Of a stretch of 16,995 nucleotides of DNA, positions 11,820 to 15,674 are shown in pieces (position 1 is the first letter of the stretch; every line of letters starts with the position of its first letter). The notes below the pieces were generated by a model. It saw nothing but the letters and a program-made list of their open reading frames with translations. It was not told where the DNA came from and made no database searches. Location: UHGV virus genome UHGV-1578124; one strand, given 5' to 3'. The position numbers and the translations under genes were made by a program. The stretch is from a virus.

Positions 11820-11897
11820 GTTCCAGTAGACAAATTGGTAAAGTCACCACACTTTCAATGTGGAGTTTTGAGGGTTCAAGTCCCTTCTGGAACGCCA
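11820..11897 (+). tRNA. tRNA-Glu (anticodon TTC)
   Basis: Acceptor GTTCCAG/CTGGAAC; anticodon stem CCACA/TGTGG, loop CTTTCAA; T-loop TTCAAGT; discriminator G; CCA encoded. Confidence 0.8.
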
Positions 11898-12284: not shown

Positions 12285-12373
12285 TGCGTCGTTATCCCGT
12301 AGATGGAAGCGGTGGTGACTGTAAATCACTTGTCATTACGACTCGGTAGGTTCGACTCCTTCACGGCGCACCA
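12285..12373 (+). tRNA. tRNA-Tyr (anticodon GTA), type II
   Basis: Acceptor GCGTCGT/ACGGCGC; anticodon stem GGTGA/TCACT, loop CTGTAAA; long variable arm with GTC/GAC stem; T-loop TTCGACT; discriminator A; CCA. Confidence 0.8.
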
Positions 12374-12602: not shown

Positions 12603-12734
12603 TTACAGAAGACCGTTTACAGCAAACAATAAACAATCTATTTCTCTTATAAAGAAAAGGCGAAGGTTCGAATCCTTCACACGTTACGGCGTGTTGGTGT
12701 AATGGAAGCACTTAAGATAAATACGGTCTGGTAA
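12603..12734 (+). ncRNA. structured spacer element E4 with internal tRNA-like module
   Basis: Outer TTAC (12603-06) / GTAA (12731-34); inner AGACCGT (12610-16) / ACGGTCT (12723-29). Apical region 12662-12711 holds a canonical T-arm, an ACACG/CGTGT hairpin and a D-arm-like GTG-TAATGGAAG-CAC. Confidence 0.55.
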
Positions 12735-13241: not shown

Positions 13242-13403
13242 AGTTTTCGTTAGCGTAGCGTCTATTTTGCAAACTTAAAAATAAATGCAAACGATAATGT
13301 TTTTCTGGCAGTAGCTTAATAGGCTAAACACCAGTGAGGTCTTCCAACCCCTCATCAAAGAATTTGGCGTACTAGCCCACGGTATGATTAATAAGGTGGG
13401 CAT
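13242..13403 (+). ncRNA. candidate small RNA / transcribed spacer
   Basis: Lies downstream of the 13207 promoter; hairpins TAGC/GCTA (13312-26), TGAGG/CCTCA (13334-53), GCCCAC/GTGGGC (13375-13401); no tRNA fold and no ORF. Confidence 0.3.
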
Positions 13404-13440
13404 CTTTAAGGGCTTTCTAAGAGAGTCTTTAAAGATTAAT

Positions 13441-13647: not shown

Positions 13648-13659
13648 TCGAATTATAGT

Positions 13660-13742
13660 ATGGGACGATGTTAAGACACTAAGGCATGTGCGTAAGCCTC
13701 CAAAACTTACTCAAAGGGGTTCGATTCCTCCGTCCCATGCCA
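13660..13742 (+). tRNA. tRNA-Trp (anticodon CCA), atypical 80 nt
   Basis: Acceptor ATGGGAC/GTCCCAT (perfect); anticodon loop CTCCAAA; T-loop TTCGATT; discriminator G; CCA. There are about 7 extra nt between the acceptor stem and the D-arm. Confidence 0.6.
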
Positions 13743-13938: not shown

Positions 13939-14093
13939 CACGGAGAAGAGATAGTATCAAGCTCTCCAAAGGTTCTAGTCACCGGATTGAATAAGACTAT
14001 ATAAAGACTGTTTAGGTCTTTTTAGAGAATTGCTGAGGCATTTGATACCATTGTTGCTTTGGCGTCTTAGCAGTTCTCTACAAAGATTTAATG

Positions 14094-14171
14094 GGAGATT
14101 GACGGTAATTGGTAAACCTACCATCCTTAGAAGTTGGTGTTTGAGGGTTCGAATCCCTTGTCTCCTACCAA
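14094..14171 (+). tRNA. tRNA with anticodon TAG (Leu codon CUA), type I
   Basis: Acceptor GGGAGAT/GTCTCCT (G-U pairs at both ends); anticodon stem CCATC/GTTGG, loop CTTAGAA; T-arm GAGGG-TTCGAAT-CCCTT; discriminator A; CCA; no long variable arm. Confidence 0.6.
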
Positions 14172-14178
14172 ATTAATG

Positions 14179-14254
14179 CAGGTGTAGCAAAATGGTTATG
14201 CGGCTGACTCTTAATCAGTAAGACGATGGGTTCAATTCCCTCCACCTGTACCAA
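14179..14254 (+). tRNA. tRNA-Lys (anticodon CTT)
   Basis: Acceptor GCAGGTG/CACCTGT; anticodon stem GCTGA/TCAGT, loop CTCTTAA; same weak T-arm as Lys(TTT); discriminator A; CCA. Confidence 0.7.
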
Positions 14255-14260
14255 ATATCG

Positions 14261-14336
14261 GGGATGTAGTTTACATGGTTAAAACATAAGTTTTGCAAAC
14301 TTAAGTACAGGGTTCAATTCCCTGCTTCTCCACCAA
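14261..14336 (+). tRNA. tRNA-Ala (anticodon TGC)
   Basis: Acceptor GGGGATG/CTTCTCC with a G3-U70 wobble (the known Ala identity pair); D-stem GTTT/AAAC; anticodon stem TAAGT/ACTTA, loop TTTGCAA; T-arm CAGGG-TTCAATT-CCCTG; discriminator A; CCA. Confidence 0.85.
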
Positions 14337-14342
14337 TTAGTG

Positions 14343-14417
14343 CATCCATAGTTTAAACGGGAAAATTACAGTCTTCCAAACTGAGGTTGAGGGTTCGATT
14401 CCCTCTGGATGCTCCAA
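14343..14417 (+). tRNA. tRNA-Gly (anticodon TCC)
   Basis: Acceptor GCATCCA/TGGATGC (perfect); anticodon loop CTTCCAA; T-arm GAGGG-TTCGATT-CCCTC; discriminator U (as in Gly tRNAs); CCA. Confidence 0.85.
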
Positions 14418-14423
14418 ATAATG

Positions 14424-14500
14424 CTGCTTTCGTATAATTGGCTATTACACATCCCTTGTAAGGATGGAGATGCGGGTTCAAGTCCTGTGAGCAGCACCAA
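14424..14500 (+). tRNA. tRNA-Thr (anticodon TGT)
   Basis: Acceptor GCTGCTT/GAGCAGC; anticodon stem CATCC/GGATG, loop CTTGTAA; T-loop TTCAAGT; discriminator A; CCA. Confidence 0.8.
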
Positions 14501-14504
14501 TTTG

Positions 14505-14588
14505 AGGTCAAGTGAAAGGCCGCTTGAGTCAACTGAGACCGTAGCAAATTCCACGGAGTTGAGTTAGCGGCACAACTTCAGACCTCTT
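14505..14588 (+). ncRNA. nested-helix structured element between tRNA-Thr and tRNA-Val
   Basis: Closing helix GAGGTC (14505-10) / GACCTC (14583-88), second helix GCCGC/GCGGC, internal direct repeat TTGAGT x2; followed by a CTTTTAAAG motif. Confidence 0.4.
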
Positions 14589-14594
14589 TTAAAG

Positions 14595-14669
14595 CTCGCT
14601 TAGTTTATACGGTAAAGCCCCATCCTTACAAGTTGGTGAAGAAGGTTCAAGTCCTTCAGCGAGTACCAA
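14595..14669 (+). tRNA. tRNA-Val (anticodon TAC)
   Basis: Acceptor GCTCGCT/AGCGAGT; D-stem GTTT/AAGC; anticodon stem CCATC/GTTGG, loop CTTACAA; T-arm GAAGG-TTCAAGT-CCTTC; discriminator A; CCA. Confidence 0.8.
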
Positions 14670-14670
14670 G

Positions 14671-14748
14671 TTCCAGTATCCCAATTGGCAGAGGATGCAA
14701 GCTCAAACCTTGTATTAGTGACGGTTCGAATCCGTCTTGGAACACCAA
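14671..14748 (+). tRNA. tRNA with anticodon CAA (Leu codon UUG), type I
   Basis: Acceptor GTTCCAG/TTGGAAC; anticodon stem GCAAG/CTTGT, loop CTCAAAC; T-arm GACGG-TTCGAAT-CCGTC; discriminator A; CCA; 75 nt. Confidence 0.6.
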
Positions 14749-14762
14749 ATTAGGAGATTCCT

Positions 14763-14975
14763 ATGAAGCCTTATGGTAGACATGGTAAAGTTGAAATTGC
14801 AAGTTGTGGTTGCTGTGCTTCTCACGATGGTGAAGAAGATTACTACAAGTGGCGTACAGACCATCGTAGACGCTTTCTCAGAAGAGATAAGAAGAAAGCT
14901 AGACAGGAATCTCAAAAGAATATTGCAGAATTAGTTCAAACGGATAGAGCAGCAGCCTACGAAGTTGTTTGTTAG
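14763..14975 (+). CDS. small basic cysteine-containing protein (70 aa)
   Basis: AGGAG 5 nt upstream of ATG; contains C-G-C-C; its last ~17 codons run through the 5' two-thirds of tRNA-Arg(ACG), so the true 3' end is uncertain. Confidence 0.45.
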   Translation: MKPYGRHGKVEIASCGCCASHDGEEDYYKWRTDHRRRFLRRDKKKARQESQKNIAELVQTDRAAAYEVVC

Positions 14976-15001
14976 GGGTTCGAATCCCTTATTCTGCACC
15001 A
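14925..15001 (+). tRNA. tRNA-Arg (anticodon ACG)
   Basis: Acceptor GCAGAAT/ATTCTGC (perfect); D-stem GTTC/GAGC; anticodon stem GCAGC/GTTGT, loop CTACGAA; T-arm AGGGG-TTCGAAT-CCCTT; discriminator A; CCA. Confidence 0.85.
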
Positions 15002-15019
15002 ATTTTAGAAGGTAATTAT

Positions 15020-15247
15020 ATGCGTAAACTCATTATTGAAAGGCATAAAGATGCTGACAAGATTGCAACAACACAAGTTGGGGACACTGACTTCATTCTT
15101 GTAGGTTGGAAATGTGACCCAATAGCAGTTATGAAGGTTGTTCATGGTTTTGCAGGAATTGAATTTAATCAAATCATATTTGAAACGCTATTACCAGAAA
15201 ATCAGGATACGTGTAATAACGCATATGTCCTGACAAGAGTTCGTTAG
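15020..15247 (+). CDS. small protein (75 aa), paralog of 15292-15519
   Basis: AGAAGG ~7 nt upstream of ATG (MRKLIIERH...); the track ORF starts earlier inside the tRNA. Shares blocks with the next gene (GDT-FI-VGWK-DP, FAG-E, QVIFET-LPEN-DTCNNAY-LTRV). Confidence 0.65.
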   Translation: MRKLIIERHKDADKIATTQVGDTDFILVGWKCDPIAVMKVVHGFAGIEFNQIIFETLLPENQDTCNNAYVLTRVR

Positions 15248-15273
15248 GGGTTCGAATCCCTTATTCTGCACCA
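15244..15273 (+). pseudogene. tRNA 3' fragment (T-arm + acceptor 3' strand + CCA)
   Basis: A 31-nt stretch (GTTAGGGGTTCGAATCCCTTATTCTGCACCA, from 15243) is identical to the 3' end of tRNA-Arg(ACG) at 14971-15001; no matching 5' acceptor strand, D-arm or anticodon arm upstream. Confidence 0.65.
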
Positions 15274-15291
15274 AATTTAAAAGGGTAACTT

Positions 15292-15519
15292 ATGTTTAAA
15301 CTCATAGTTGAAAAACACCCAGAAGATGACAAGCTTGAAACAGGGAGATTTGGAGATACTTTCTTTATCAGAGTTGGCTGGAAAGCTGACCCATTAGAAG
15401 TTAGAAAGATTGTCTACAACTTTGCTGGTTTGGAATTAAAGCAAGTCATCTTTGAAACAATGTTGCCAGAAAATAAAGATACATGCAATAACGCATATAT
15501 TCTTACAAGAGTTAGTTAG
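15292..15519 (+). CDS. small protein (75 aa), paralog of 15020-15247
   Basis: AAAGGG upstream of ATG; stop codon TAG (15517-19) overlaps the first nucleotides of tRNA-Gln(TTG). Confidence 0.65.
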   Translation: MFKLIVEKHPEDDKLETGRFGDTFFIRVGWKADPLEVRKIVYNFAGLELKQVIFETMLPENKDTCNNAYILTRVS

Positions 15520-15593
15520 GGGATTAGTTTACAAGGTTAAAACCTCGGTCTTTGAAATCGAAGAAGTTGGTTCAATTCCAACATCCCCCGCCA
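15518..15593 (+). tRNA. tRNA-Gln (anticodon TTG)
   Basis: Acceptor AGGGGAT/ATCCCCC with unpaired 1-72; D-stem GTTT/AAAC; anticodon stem TCGGT/ATCGA, loop CTTTGAA; T-arm GTTGG-TTCAATT-CCAAC; discriminator G; CCA. Confidence 0.75.
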
Positions 15594-15595
15594 AT

Positions 15596-15674
15596 GCTCC
15601 ATTACTCCAATTGGCAGAGAGGCCAGACTTAAAATCTGTGTTATGTATCGGTTCGAATCCGATATGGAGTACCA
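15596..15674 (+). tRNA. tRNA with anticodon TAA (Leu codon UUA), type I
   Basis: Acceptor GCTCCAT/ATGGAGT; anticodon stem CAGA/TCTG, loop CTTAAAA; T-arm ATCGG-TTCGAAT-CCGAT; discriminator A; CCA; 76 nt with a 7-nt variable region. Confidence 0.6.

Follow-up and report, generated by a model that had tools for sequence, protein, structure and literature searches.

How would a host enzyme load leucine onto tRNAs that have leucine anticodons and no long variable arm? According to a review, leucine tRNAs carry such an arm everywhere but in animal mitochondria (PMC9976931), and the type I tRNA-Leu of Streptomyces has been presented as a rare exception (PMC6614811). The question is raised in testable form by three short phage tRNA-Leu genes in the stretch of DNA analysed here (16,995 nucleotides of UHGV virus genome UHGV-1578124, hereafter the window), which is an Ounavirinae (Felix O1-like) tRNA cluster. 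A first-pass annotation allowed two options, either type I Leu isoacceptors encoded by the phage or anticodon-switched derivatives of other tRNAs. Judged from their sequences, the three are most likely genuine Leu isoacceptors rather than switched copies.

Structures of the three leucine tRNA genes

Genes were called by ARAGORN and checked with the Rfam tRNA covariance model (RF00005; gathering score 29 bits). The three Leu tRNAs, designated below by their DNA anticodons, are as follows.

14093..14170, plus strand: tRNA-Leu(UAG), type I (ARAGORN; Rfam 40.0 bits)
14670..14747, plus strand: tRNA-Leu(CAA), type I (ARAGORN; Rfam 44.0 bits)
15596..15674, plus strand: tRNA-Leu(UAA), type I (ARAGORN; Rfam 47.5 bits)

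Both programs bear out the initial description of three short tRNAs with Leu anticodons (TAG, CAA, TAA), 75–76 nt in length, with variable regions of 5–7 nt and A73. The first of them had been placed at 14094; the gene is real, but its start is off by one, and we keep 14093 although the Rfam model prefers 14094, because the latter register displaces the encoded CCA. By the ARAGORN calls, Leu(TAG) and Leu(CAA) each consist of 75 nt plus an encoded CCA (78 nt in total), and Leu(TAA) of 76 nt plus CCA (79 nt in total).

The three cloverleaves are complete, and each matches the Rfam model over its full length (positions 1–71 of 71). All have the T-loop UUCGAAU, an encoded CCA and a 7-nt anticodon loop with U33 (CUUAGAA, CUCAAAC and CUUAAAA, respectively). 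The variable regions are TGTTT (14138–14142), ATTAGT (14714–14719) and GTTATGT (15640–15646), or 5, 6 and 7 nt, which places all three outside type II (more than 10 nt, forming a stem-loop). Refolding with the covariance model revealed neither a long arm nor a different anticodon frame in any of them, and the type I form stands. The short arm is specific to Leu, since both tRNA-Ser of the window (90 and 93 nt) have long arms, of 19–21 nt.

Leu(CAA) and Leu(TAA) (anticodons at 14704–14706 and 15630–15632) are closest to one another, with Leu(CAA) being the nearest paralogue of Leu(TAA) in an all-against-all comparison within the window (75% identity). Both have a 3-bp D stem, the same 11-nt D-loop (CAAUUGGCAGA), A9, C13 and discriminator A73; Leu(TAA) has in addition a G1·U72 pair. 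Leu(TAG) (anticodon at 14128–14130) also has G1·U72 and A73, and its D arm is irregular: the D-loop is UAAUUGGUAAA, the stem is formed by pairs 11-24, 12-23 and 13-22 with a C10·U25 mismatch, and one extra nucleotide follows position 9, between the acceptor and D stems. Its anticodon stem contains a U30·U40 mismatch.

Identity elements and isotype assignment

E. coli LeuRS makes no use of the anticodon or of the long arm (PMC9976931); its determinants are A73, A14, A15:U48, G18G19 at fixed spacing, A20a and U54:A58 (PMC9976931, PMC6614811). Every one of these that can be read from sequence is carried by all three Leu tRNAs. U8, A14, A15 and U48 are present in each, with a predicted A15:U48 pair, as are U54:A58 and the elbow of G18G19 with U55C56, and the D arm is of the Leu type (3-bp stem, 11-nt loop, A14 A15 N N G18 G19 N A20a). 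None of the three has an unpaired nucleotide 47n at the foot of a long arm, an element that is impossible in its known form where that arm is missing. The combined signature (A14 A15 NN G18 G19, U48, A73) occurs in 90% of Leu tRNAs and in 6.6% of non-Leu tRNAs, among them the Thr(TGT) and Arg(ACG) tRNAs of the window. We therefore dropped it as a diagnostic classifier, and consider it necessary for a Leu reading rather than discriminating.

For the sister phage Sf14, isotype scores from tRNAscan-SE have been published, and in these Leu ranks first for all three anticodons (TAG, 67.4, with Ile2 at 65.7; CAA, 49.1; TAA, 60.2). We also built an isotype classifier in which the anticodon and variable region were stripped and the Leu model was trained on type II Leu tRNAs only; on cross-validation it recovered 280 of 283 Leu tRNAs (99%) and called 16 of 1601 non-Leu tRNAs Leu. 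Here Leu is first for CAA (20.8 vs 17.6 bits) and TAA (32.0 vs 29.8 bits), by small margins, and for TAG it is tied with Gly (28.8 and 29.1 bits), the top three models being Gly, Leu and Glu, without Val. With these margins and this tie, our classifier is not decisive for the three tRNAs. Among short Leu tRNAs from outside this phage family, it assigned 130 of 176 to Leu. The isotype comparison proposed in the first-pass annotation thus ranks Leu first for CAA and TAA in both sets of scores, and for TAG it does so in the Sf14 scores and ends in a tie in ours. Short Leu genes like these will score low in annotation pipelines and in isotype models whose training set was type II Leu.

An anticodon arm shared with a neighbouring tRNA-Val

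Two further genes of the cluster share segments with the Leu tRNAs:

14594..14668, plus strand: tRNA-Val(UAC), the putative partner of Leu(TAG) in an arm exchange
11820..11897, plus strand: tRNA-Glu(UUC), with acceptor stem and D-loop resembling those of Leu(CAA)

Over its 17 nt, the anticodon arm of Leu(TAG) repeats that of Val(TAC) at every position but 36, and this is the only one of 300 tRNA pairs in the window to match at 10/10 stem positions (the runner-up matches at 8/10). Such a likeness could mean that the three genes are anticodon-switched derivatives, for example Leu(UAG) from Val(UAC), which are still charged with the ancestral amino acid, so that Leu codons are partly mistranslated or recoded. 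It fits this idea that full-length Leu(TAG) is nearest to Arg(ACG) (73%) and Val(TAC) (67%) rather than to the other Leu tRNAs, that Gly ties with Leu for it in our classifier, and that Leu(CAA) and Glu(TTC) have an acceptor stem in common. Outside the anticodon arm, however, Leu(TAG) and Val(TAC) differ in every region, namely the acceptor stem, D arm (11-nt vs 8-nt loop), variable loop and T arm. Nor is the common arm constant in relatives. In Felix O1 an unchanged Leu(TAG) body carries a completely different, fully paired anticodon stem, the Val gene of Felix O1 and FG1m carries another stem, and the stem with the U30·U40 mismatch is native to the Leu(TAG) homologues of BF23 and of a Seunavirus.

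A35 and C36 are major identity determinants for E. coli ValRS, and Leu(TAG) has G36 in place of C36, so the UAG anticodon should abolish valylation. Further, A73 and U48 occur together in 99% of the short Leu tRNAs listed in the phage scan described below, which would not be expected from mixed ancestries; Felix O1-type genomes have no other tRNA-Leu; and leucine makes up 7.6% of codons in the window ORFs, so that systematic mistranslation would be costly. We give hardly any credence to anticodon switching as a general reading of these genes.

The domain-wise comparison and the variation of the arm among relatives speak against a Val origin for Leu(TAG). Because only the arm is common, and relatives vary in it, the evidence points to a module exchanged between neighbouring genes and not to descent from Val. 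Since LeuRS ignores the anticodon arm, such an arm would be swappable between neighbours, which would explain the arm common to Leu(UAG) and Val(UAC). The earlier observation of a shared stem and a single differing loop base is correct, and the derivation from Val that it had suggested is not supported. On sequence grounds, Glu(TTC) and Leu(CAA) are a second case of a module common to two tRNA genes of the cluster: their acceptor stems agree at 13 of 14 positions and their D-loops are similar (AAAUUGGUAAA in Glu(TTC)), with the discriminator of Glu(TTC) being G73. The Leu model of our classifier gives Glu(TTC) 34.3 bits, more than it gives any of the three Leu tRNAs. Swapping of whole arms among tRNA genes in phage clusters makes it harder to infer the ancestry of a tRNA from a single domain. 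Compared by blastn with 5,426 E. coli genomes, Leu(TAG) had no hit at E ≤ 1, and no host gene thus suggests itself as its source.

Conservation and coding context

More than 250 phage genomes have the three Leu genes in conserved form. Exact copies of Leu(TAG) occur in Mooglevirus, Suspvirus and some Felixounavirus genomes, and exact copies of Leu(CAA) in Felix O1, Mijalis, phiSUSP1 and the IMG/VR locus L062. For Leu(TAA), 216 of 264 phage records have precisely this sequence, with flanking DNA that is 90–95% identical; this identity, and the fully paired replacement stem of Leu(TAG) in Felix O1, we read as evidence for purifying selection. The phage has no type II Leu alongside its three type I isoacceptors, and a large and well-studied group of E. 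coli and Salmonella phages thus has no tRNA-Leu but the short form.

This conservation bears on whether the tRNAs are used in translation at all. They might instead be pseudogenes in decay, or tRNA-like RNAs that serve another purpose, for instance as decoys, processing signals or recombination sites, as could be suspected from Rfam scores that are among the lowest in the cluster (40–47.5 bits), from the irregular D arm and anticodon-stem mismatch of Leu(TAG), and from the company of degenerate tRNA-like elements, a tRNA remnant and, in Felix O1, two other tRNAs labelled as pseudogenes. We find this very improbable in view of the extreme conservation of the Leu genes and the compensatory swap of a whole anticodon stem in Felix O1. 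The complete cloverleaves with U33, 7-nt loop, T-loop UUCGAAU and encoded CCA argue against it as well, as do the recurrence of the same three anticodons on short tRNA-Leu of unrelated phages and a BF23 homologue that works on the ribosome as a suppressor.

Comparison with known leucine tRNAs

The type II Leu tRNAs of E. coli K-12 (leuZ, leuW, leuX, leuQPV), T4 and T5 are 85–87 nt long with variable arms of 12–15 nt. They have the anticodons UAA, CAA and UAG, A73, U48 and the type of T-loop in common with the window tRNAs, and their D arm (3-bp stem and 11-nt loop, NAAUYGGYAGA; [G/A]AAU[U/C]GGUAGA in E. coli, T4 and T5) is also that of Leu(CAA) and Leu(TAA). The difference in the core lies at positions 9 and 13, which are G9 (following U8) and a purine in these type II Leu tRNAs, and A9 and C13 in Leu(CAA) and Leu(TAA).

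The closest counterpart of Leu(UAG) is tRNAL1 of BF23 (Leu, UAG; AJ604530), a type I tRNA of 77 nt that is 84% identical to it, with the same T arm, anticodon loop (CUUAGAA) and U30·U40 mismatch. BF23 infects E. coli and belongs to another family (Demerecviridae), and the D arm of its tRNA is regular (UG AUG GAAUUGGCAUA CAU). According to the AJ604530 annotation, tRNAL1 with a CUA anticodon is an “effective amber suppressor”, the inserted amino acid being unstated there; on that evidence, E. coli charges tRNAL1 whichever anticodon it bears.

The type I tRNA-Leu(CAA) of Streptomyces coelicolor resembles the phage tRNAs in having a short variable loop and a Leu anticodon. For good charging its loop must have at least 5 nt (Fan et al. 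2019, PMC6614811), a length that the phage loops (5–7 nt) reach or exceed. It has C48, and its A73 is no identity element for its LeuRS, whereas the phage tRNAs have U48 and A73. The phage tRNAs must work with an enterobacterial LeuRS. The LeuRS of E. coli, in which the leucine-specific domain reportedly prefers a variable loop of large size, does not leucylate the S. coelicolor tRNA (PMC6614811). That tRNA, having C48, may lack the A15:U48 element.

[quoted passage not shown] They have a reduced and often unstable core, a dedicated mitochondrial LeuRS and no sequence kinship to the phage tRNAs, which, unlike them, retain a canonical G18G19/U55C56 elbow. In the account that PMC9976931 gives of Larkin et al. 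2002, a minimal E. coli tRNA-Leu without variable and anticodon arms is leucylated by E. coli LeuRS, provided that A73 and the D-loop/T-loop interactions are intact. Those minimal tRNAs are laboratory constructs assayed in vitro, and the phage tRNAs are natural, full decoding tRNAs.

Predicted charging and decoding

The LeuRS determinants, the first or tied rank of Leu among isotypes, the BF23 suppressor and the invariance of A73 and U48 all favour the first of the two original options, and we regard it as probable that the three genes are working leucine isoacceptors without a long variable arm. They would be transcribed within the phage tRNA operon, with CCA already encoded, and the host leucyl-tRNA synthetase would load leucine by way of A73 and the D-loop/T-loop core. 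The UAA and CAA tRNAs would read UUA and UUG, and the UAG tRNA CUN, so that together they could cover all leucine codons. The phage, with a G+C content of 39%, uses CUA, CUU and UUA heavily (Leu codon use in window ORFs: CTT 0.28, TTA 0.19, CTG 0.19, CTA 0.14, TTG 0.13, CTC 0.06). These tRNAs offer a natural test of arm-free substrate recognition by LeuRS, in a host whose LeuRS reportedly rejects a type I tRNA-Leu. Because charging should not depend on the anticodon, they may also be of use to suppressor and genetic-code engineering, as compact tRNA-Leu scaffolds shaped by natural evolution.

Short leucine tRNAs across phages and a probable loss of the arm

IMG/VR was scanned with a pattern independent of A73 and U48, and the sequences were selected for the cloverleaf by ARAGORN. 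We found at least 170 short tRNA-Leu (160 of them unique among the matches listed) in at least about 110 contigs. Among the matches listed, A73 is present in 170/170 and U48 in 169/170, which is as invariant as in type II tRNA-Leu; the two occur together in 99% of the 170–201 short Leu-anticodon tRNAs listed and in 16% of non-Leu tRNAs. In the same contigs, again among the matches listed, 101 of 102 Ser and 37 of 40 Tyr tRNAs keep the long form, and 81 of the roughly 110 contigs with a type I Leu have no type II Leu in the fetched stretch. With a pattern independent of arm length, the short form accounted for 23 of the first 120 viral contigs matched, or about one fifth of the viral tRNA-Leu genes sampled (among the matches listed), vs 5 of the 120 matches from the first 120 bacterial contigs. 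The core A9 and C13 marks a subclass (61/183 short vs 0/283 type II Leu).

Type I tRNA-Leu occur in at least four phage groups (Ounavirinae, Demerecviridae, Herelleviridae and Vequintavirinae), with carriers including BF23, an Aeromonas Demerecviridae phage, a Lactobacillus Herelleviridae phage and a Seunavirus, and the anticodons UAG, CAA and UAA recur among them. T4 and T5 thus conform to the premise of type II tRNA-Leu in known phages, but BF23, the Aeromonas and Lactobacillus phages and the Seunavirus do not. Searches of open-access full texts turned up no account of phage tRNA-Leu of type I.

As to origin, dispensability for leucylation is the probable reason why the long arm was lost. 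Ser tRNAs need theirs, and the Ser and Tyr tRNAs of these clusters keep it. The short form would then have spread among phages. An adaptive alternative differs from the preferred reading of working type I isoacceptors only in the reason for the loss: Leu acceptors with a short arm would escape host or competitor factors (nucleases, nucleotidyltransferase toxins) that recognise the type II arm, and phage leucine decoding would survive an attack on the host tRNA-Leu pool. The frequency and recurrence of the short form, its presence in all four groups, the many contigs without a type II Leu and the A9/C13 subclass are as would be expected on this account. [quoted passage not shown] We nevertheless think it unlikely. 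The literature searched yielded no bacterial defence that attacks tRNA-Leu by way of the variable arm, the Ser and Tyr tRNAs of the same clusters keep their arms, simple dispensability for LeuRS fits equally well, T4 and T5 thrive with type II Leu, and the authors of the Sf14 study deem nuclease evasion unlikely for this phage group. Equally doubtful is the wider proposal that phage type I tRNA-Leu form a distinct, horizontally spreading lineage, marked in part by the A9/C13 core, in which arm loss was selected as a structural counter-defence that may be likened to the anticodon-loop variants. If true, it would require enterobacterial LeuRS to accept type I tRNAs, against the view that E. coli LeuRS charges only type II.

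The window cluster also contains degenerate tRNA-like elements and one tRNA remnant, and two other tRNAs of Felix O1 are labelled pseudogenes by its annotators.

Three short tRNA-Leu in the window

The window carries 25 tRNA genes (ARAGORN), on the + strand between 11.7 and 16.9 kb, and three of these are tRNA-Leu with a short variable region (type I).

tRNA-Leu genes called by ARAGORN, lengths including the encoded CCA, with scores from the Rfam tRNA model (gathering score 29; full-length match for each)
14093-14170, + strand, tRNA-Leu(TAG), 78 nt, 40.0 bits
14670-14747, + strand, tRNA-Leu(CAA), 78 nt, 44.0 bits
15596-15674, + strand, tRNA-Leu(TAA), 79 nt, 47.5 bits

[quoted passage not shown] The ARAGORN calls and full-length Rfam matches thus bear out the first-pass annotation, which had described three short tRNA-Leu with these anticodons and a discriminator A in each (found in 3/3). 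Because the variable gap is 5-7 nt and the frames are fixed, refolding with the covariance model, a check proposed in that annotation, reveals neither a long arm nor another anticodon frame in any of the three. The window's two tRNA-Ser (90 and 93 nt) keep arms of 19-21 nt, showing the short arm to be Leu-specific. For the first tRNA-Leu, the Rfam model favours a start at 14094, in which case a U would precede ACCA; the ARAGORN register gives G1.U72, A73 and CCA, and agrees with the Felix O1 counterpart, a 78-nt tRNAscan-SE tRNA-Leu call (Cove score 52.24).

Conservation among Felix O1-like phages

A 2.3-kb stretch around the three genes is matched by 258 phage records at 80-96% identity, nearly all from Felix O1-like myoviruses (Ounavirinae) of Escherichia, Salmonella, Shigella and Citrobacter; the top matches are Citrobacter phage BSwM KMM4 and Shigella phage ESh21 (~96%). 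Of 264 records, 216 match Leu(TAA) at 100% identity, although the adjoining DNA is at 90-95%, and Felix O1, Mijalis, phiSUSP1 and one IMG/VR contig have an identical Leu(CAA). The Leu(TAG) of Felix O1 has the same body as that of the window and a wholly different, fully paired anticodon stem (UCUCG/CGAGA), while Citrobacter phage Mijalis has a different, unrelated type I Leu(TAG) in its place. The tRNA-Leu complement of Felix O1 consists of these three genes only.

Two further observations concern individual relatives. Salmonella phage FG1m (locus L002, 5999-6076) has a fusion tRNA, composed of the 5' part of Leu(CAA) and the 3' end of Leu(TAA) and with an unpaired acceptor stem, which arose by a deletion between the paralogous T arms; Arg(ACG), Gln(TTG) and the intervening ORFs are gone. 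The annotated tRNA coordinates of Mijalis (locus L348, KY654690.2) are 58 nt off the gene positions given by ARAGORN and BLAST.

Leucine identity elements and isotype scores

As a type II (long-arm) reference we used E. coli K-12 leuZ, leuW, leuX and leuQPV and the tRNA regions of T4 and T5. These tRNA-Leu are all 85-87 nt with variable arms of 12-15 nt, and have U8 G9, a 3-bp D stem, an 11-nt D-loop [G/A]AAU[U/C]GGUAGA, U48 and A73. The window's Leu(CAA) and Leu(TAA) have the same 3-bp D stem and the 11-nt D-loop CAAUUGGCAGA, whereas in Leu(TAG) the D-loop is UAAUUGGUAAA, position 9 is followed by one additional nucleotide, and C10 and U25 are mismatched. Each of the three carries the sequence determinants of E. 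coli LeuRS (PMC9976931; PMC6614811): U8, A14, A15, G18G19 with Leu spacing, A20a, U48, a UUCGAAU T-loop and A73. For that enzyme the anticodon and the long arm are reportedly dispensable, and variants without both arms are still active (PMC9976931; PMC6614811). The combined signature (A14 A15 NN G18 G19, U48, A73) is carried by 90% of type I tRNA-Leu and 91.5% of type II tRNA-Leu, but also by 6.6% of non-Leu tRNAs, the window's Thr(TGT) and Arg(ACG) among them.

The isotype-score comparison suggested in the first-pass annotation is already published for the sister phage Sf14 of Shigella, and it ranks Leu first for all three (PMC12482277). The tRNAscan-SE 2.0 scores are Leu 67.4, Ile2 65.7 and Lys 63.4 for the TAG tRNA, Leu 49.1 versus Lys 36.1 for CAA, and Leu 60.2 versus Lys 54.2 for TAA; the variable arm is nowhere mentioned in that paper, and its score table omits the Glu column, on the ground of low Glu scores across all of the phage's tRNAs (PMC12482277). 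Our own, stricter classifier was built from ~2,280 ARAGORN-called tRNAs of viral and bacterial loci, leaving out relatives of the window, with the anticodon and variable region removed and the Leu profile taken from type II Leu only. Two-fold cross-validation gave a Leu recall of 280/283, with 16 of 1,601 non-Leu tRNAs called Leu. Leu comes first for Leu(CAA) (20.8 versus 17.6 bits) and Leu(TAA) (32.0 versus 29.8 bits) and ties with Gly for Leu(TAG) (Leu 28.8, Gly 29.1 bits), all by small margins, and the same type II-trained profile gives the window's tRNA-Glu(TTC) 34.3 bits, more than any of the three. The tRNA bodies are consistent with Leu, although for this phage family such evidence is not decisive by itself.

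Arms and stems shared between tRNA genes

The first-pass annotation had weighed the possibility that these are anticodon-switched derivatives of other tRNAs, pointing to an anticodon stem common to Leu(TAG) and the neighbouring Val(TAC). The likeness is confirmed (10/10 stem positions, the sole such pair among 300 in the window; the next reaches 8/10), but every domain other than the anticodon arm differs between the two genes, which argues against Leu(TAG) being a switched Val(TAC). In Felix O1 and FG1m, Val has an anticodon stem unlike that of the window's Val(TAC), and the Leu(TAG) of BF23 and of a Seunavirus have in common the stem type with a U30.U40 mismatch. The simplest reading is an exchange of the arm between genes ~500 bp apart, tolerated because LeuRS is blind to the anticodon arm. 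The acceptor stems of Leu(CAA) (14670-14747) and Glu(TTC) (11820-11897) form a second shared module: they agree at 13/14 positions, the sole outlier among 300 pairs.

Type I tRNA-Leu in other phages and in bacteria

An IMG/VR scan with a pattern permitting none but a short variable region matched at least 120 contigs. Among the matches listed, ARAGORN called 170 tRNA-Leu of no more than 80 nt (160 unique) and 47 long ones; on these contigs with short Leu, nearly all Ser (101 of 102) and Tyr (37 of 40) tRNAs are long. All 170 of the short Leu tRNAs listed have A73 and 169 have U48, neither being part of the search pattern; the D-loop is 11 nt in 139 of the 170 and the variable loop 5 nt in 145. 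The 58 short Leu tRNAs that fall outside the pattern share this architecture. With a pattern independent of arm length, the 120 viral contigs listed comprise 23 type I and 97 type II, and the 120 bacterial contigs listed comprise 5 type I and 115 type II matches. The bacterial type I matches listed are from high-G+C Actinobacteria and one Planctomycete, and ARAGORN found a few further short Leu tRNAs on the listed bacterial contigs, some of them in tandem Leu clusters.

Type I and type II bodies tend to separate: for 147 of 183 type I sequences, the nearest neighbour is likewise type I. The combination A9 and C13, seen in the window's Leu(CAA) and Leu(TAA), occurs in 61 of 183 type I sequences and 0 of 283 type II.

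Across loci L010-L129 and others (IMG/VR and genome contigs), at least two core types of short tRNA-Leu can be distinguished: A9/C13, with the D-loop CAAUUGGYAGA, and G9/G13, with GAAUUGGYAUA. Similar A9/C13 genes also occur in the Gordonia and Herbiconiux genomes and in the Planctomycetota genome, where three lie in tandem.

Beyond Ounavirinae, a sensitive search found Leu(TAG) homologues at 81-84% identity in many T5-like phages and a Seunavirus. One, tRNAL1 in the BF23 tRNA-region record, is a 77-nt type I tRNA that shares with the window's Leu(TAG) the T arm, the anticodon loop and the U30.U40 stem mismatch. Its annotation states that 'replacement of the anticodon with CUA sequence converts this tRNA into effective amber suppressor', so this close relative is aminoacylated in E. 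coli and serves on the ribosome irrespective of its anticodon. The annotation names no inserted amino acid; such anticodon-independent charging would be possible with a synthetase that ignores the anticodon, as LeuRS does.

T5 (locus L004, 11625-11709) has an 85-nt type II Leu(UAG) beside the HNH endonuclease gene hegC, and at the equivalent position BF23 (locus L350, 3997-4073) has a 77-nt type I Leu(UAG), the slot in both lying between tRNA-Ala and tRNA-Ser. This is an allelic replacement inside one genus. tRNA-Leu of 74-77 nt with the same three anticodons are found in Aeromonas phage AhP_Mru1 (Demerecviridae) and Lactobacillus phage LpeD (Herelleviridae). In LpeD (locus L003, 4296-4387 and 5574-5645) ARAGORN also calls a tRNA-Ile(TAT) of 92 nt whose variable arm is long, and another tRNA whose anticodon loop has 8 nt (four-base anticodon TTTG).

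Proposed function

Given the structure, anticodons, conservation and LeuRS determinants observed for the three tRNA-Leu, we infer that the host LeuRS would charge them through A73 and the core. Leu(UAA) and Leu(CAA) would then read UUR, and Leu(UAG) CUN, which would serve the phage's leucine codon use (CTT 0.28, TTA 0.19, CTG 0.19, CTA 0.14). The arm was probably lost because LeuRS does not need it, whereas SerRS does need the arm of its own tRNAs.

The chief caveat is that S. coelicolor type I tRNA-Leu(CAA) was not charged by E. coli LeuRS, an enzyme described as type II-only (PMC6614811). That tRNA has C48, so that the A15:U48 element may be absent from it, whereas the phage tRNAs keep A15:U48. 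A short arm might also add an advantage, such as evasion of factors that anchor on the long arm in the way MenT3 does on that of tRNA-Ser (PMC11541572).

Genes of the window's type are already annotated as tRNA-Leu in hundreds of records, and type I tRNA-Leu are known from animal mitochondria and S. coelicolor (PMC9976931; PMC6614811). A 2023 review gives tRNA-Leu a long arm everywhere save animal mitochondria (PMC9976931), and a full-text search of open-access literature found no paper noting phage tRNA-Leu of type I. What is added here is that tRNA-Leu of this kind are common in phages.

Other elements of the tRNA cluster

Positions 14967-15238 and 15239-15510 form a tandem 272-nt duplication (74% identity). 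In each unit a small ORF follows the 3' half of tRNA-Arg(ACG), which comprises the T arm, the 3' strand of the acceptor and CCA; the two ORFs, with starts near 15031 and 15293, are paralogous, and their presence varies among relatives. The orphan 3' half at 15238-15274 is 95% identical to that of the intact gene. The duplication resembles the trace left by a small insertion element that targets the 3' end of a tRNA and restores it.

Positions 12286-12372 and 12612-12686 hold a type II tRNA-Tyr(GTA)-like gene, missed by ARAGORN (Rfam 22.8 bits) and marked as a pseudogene in Felix O1, and a degenerate tRNA remnant in which only the T arm is still good (30.9 bits). At 13658-13741 is a tRNA-like element, called by no tRNA finder. 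Its acceptor-like stem of 10 bp ends in GCCA, its T arm is GGGGUUCGAUUCCUC, and a 5-bp stem (GUAAG/CUUAC) carries a loop of 9 nt. The T5 and BF23 tRNA-region records annotate 'tRNA-like stable RNAs with unknown functions'. Finally, the ORF-free inter-tRNA stretches 14504-14586, 14012-14091 and 13305-13437 form long hairpins that are stabler than shuffled controls (z-scores of -4.2 for 14500-14593, -3.1 for 13960-14092 and -3.4 for 13300-13440), and could be processing signals, terminators or small stable RNAs.
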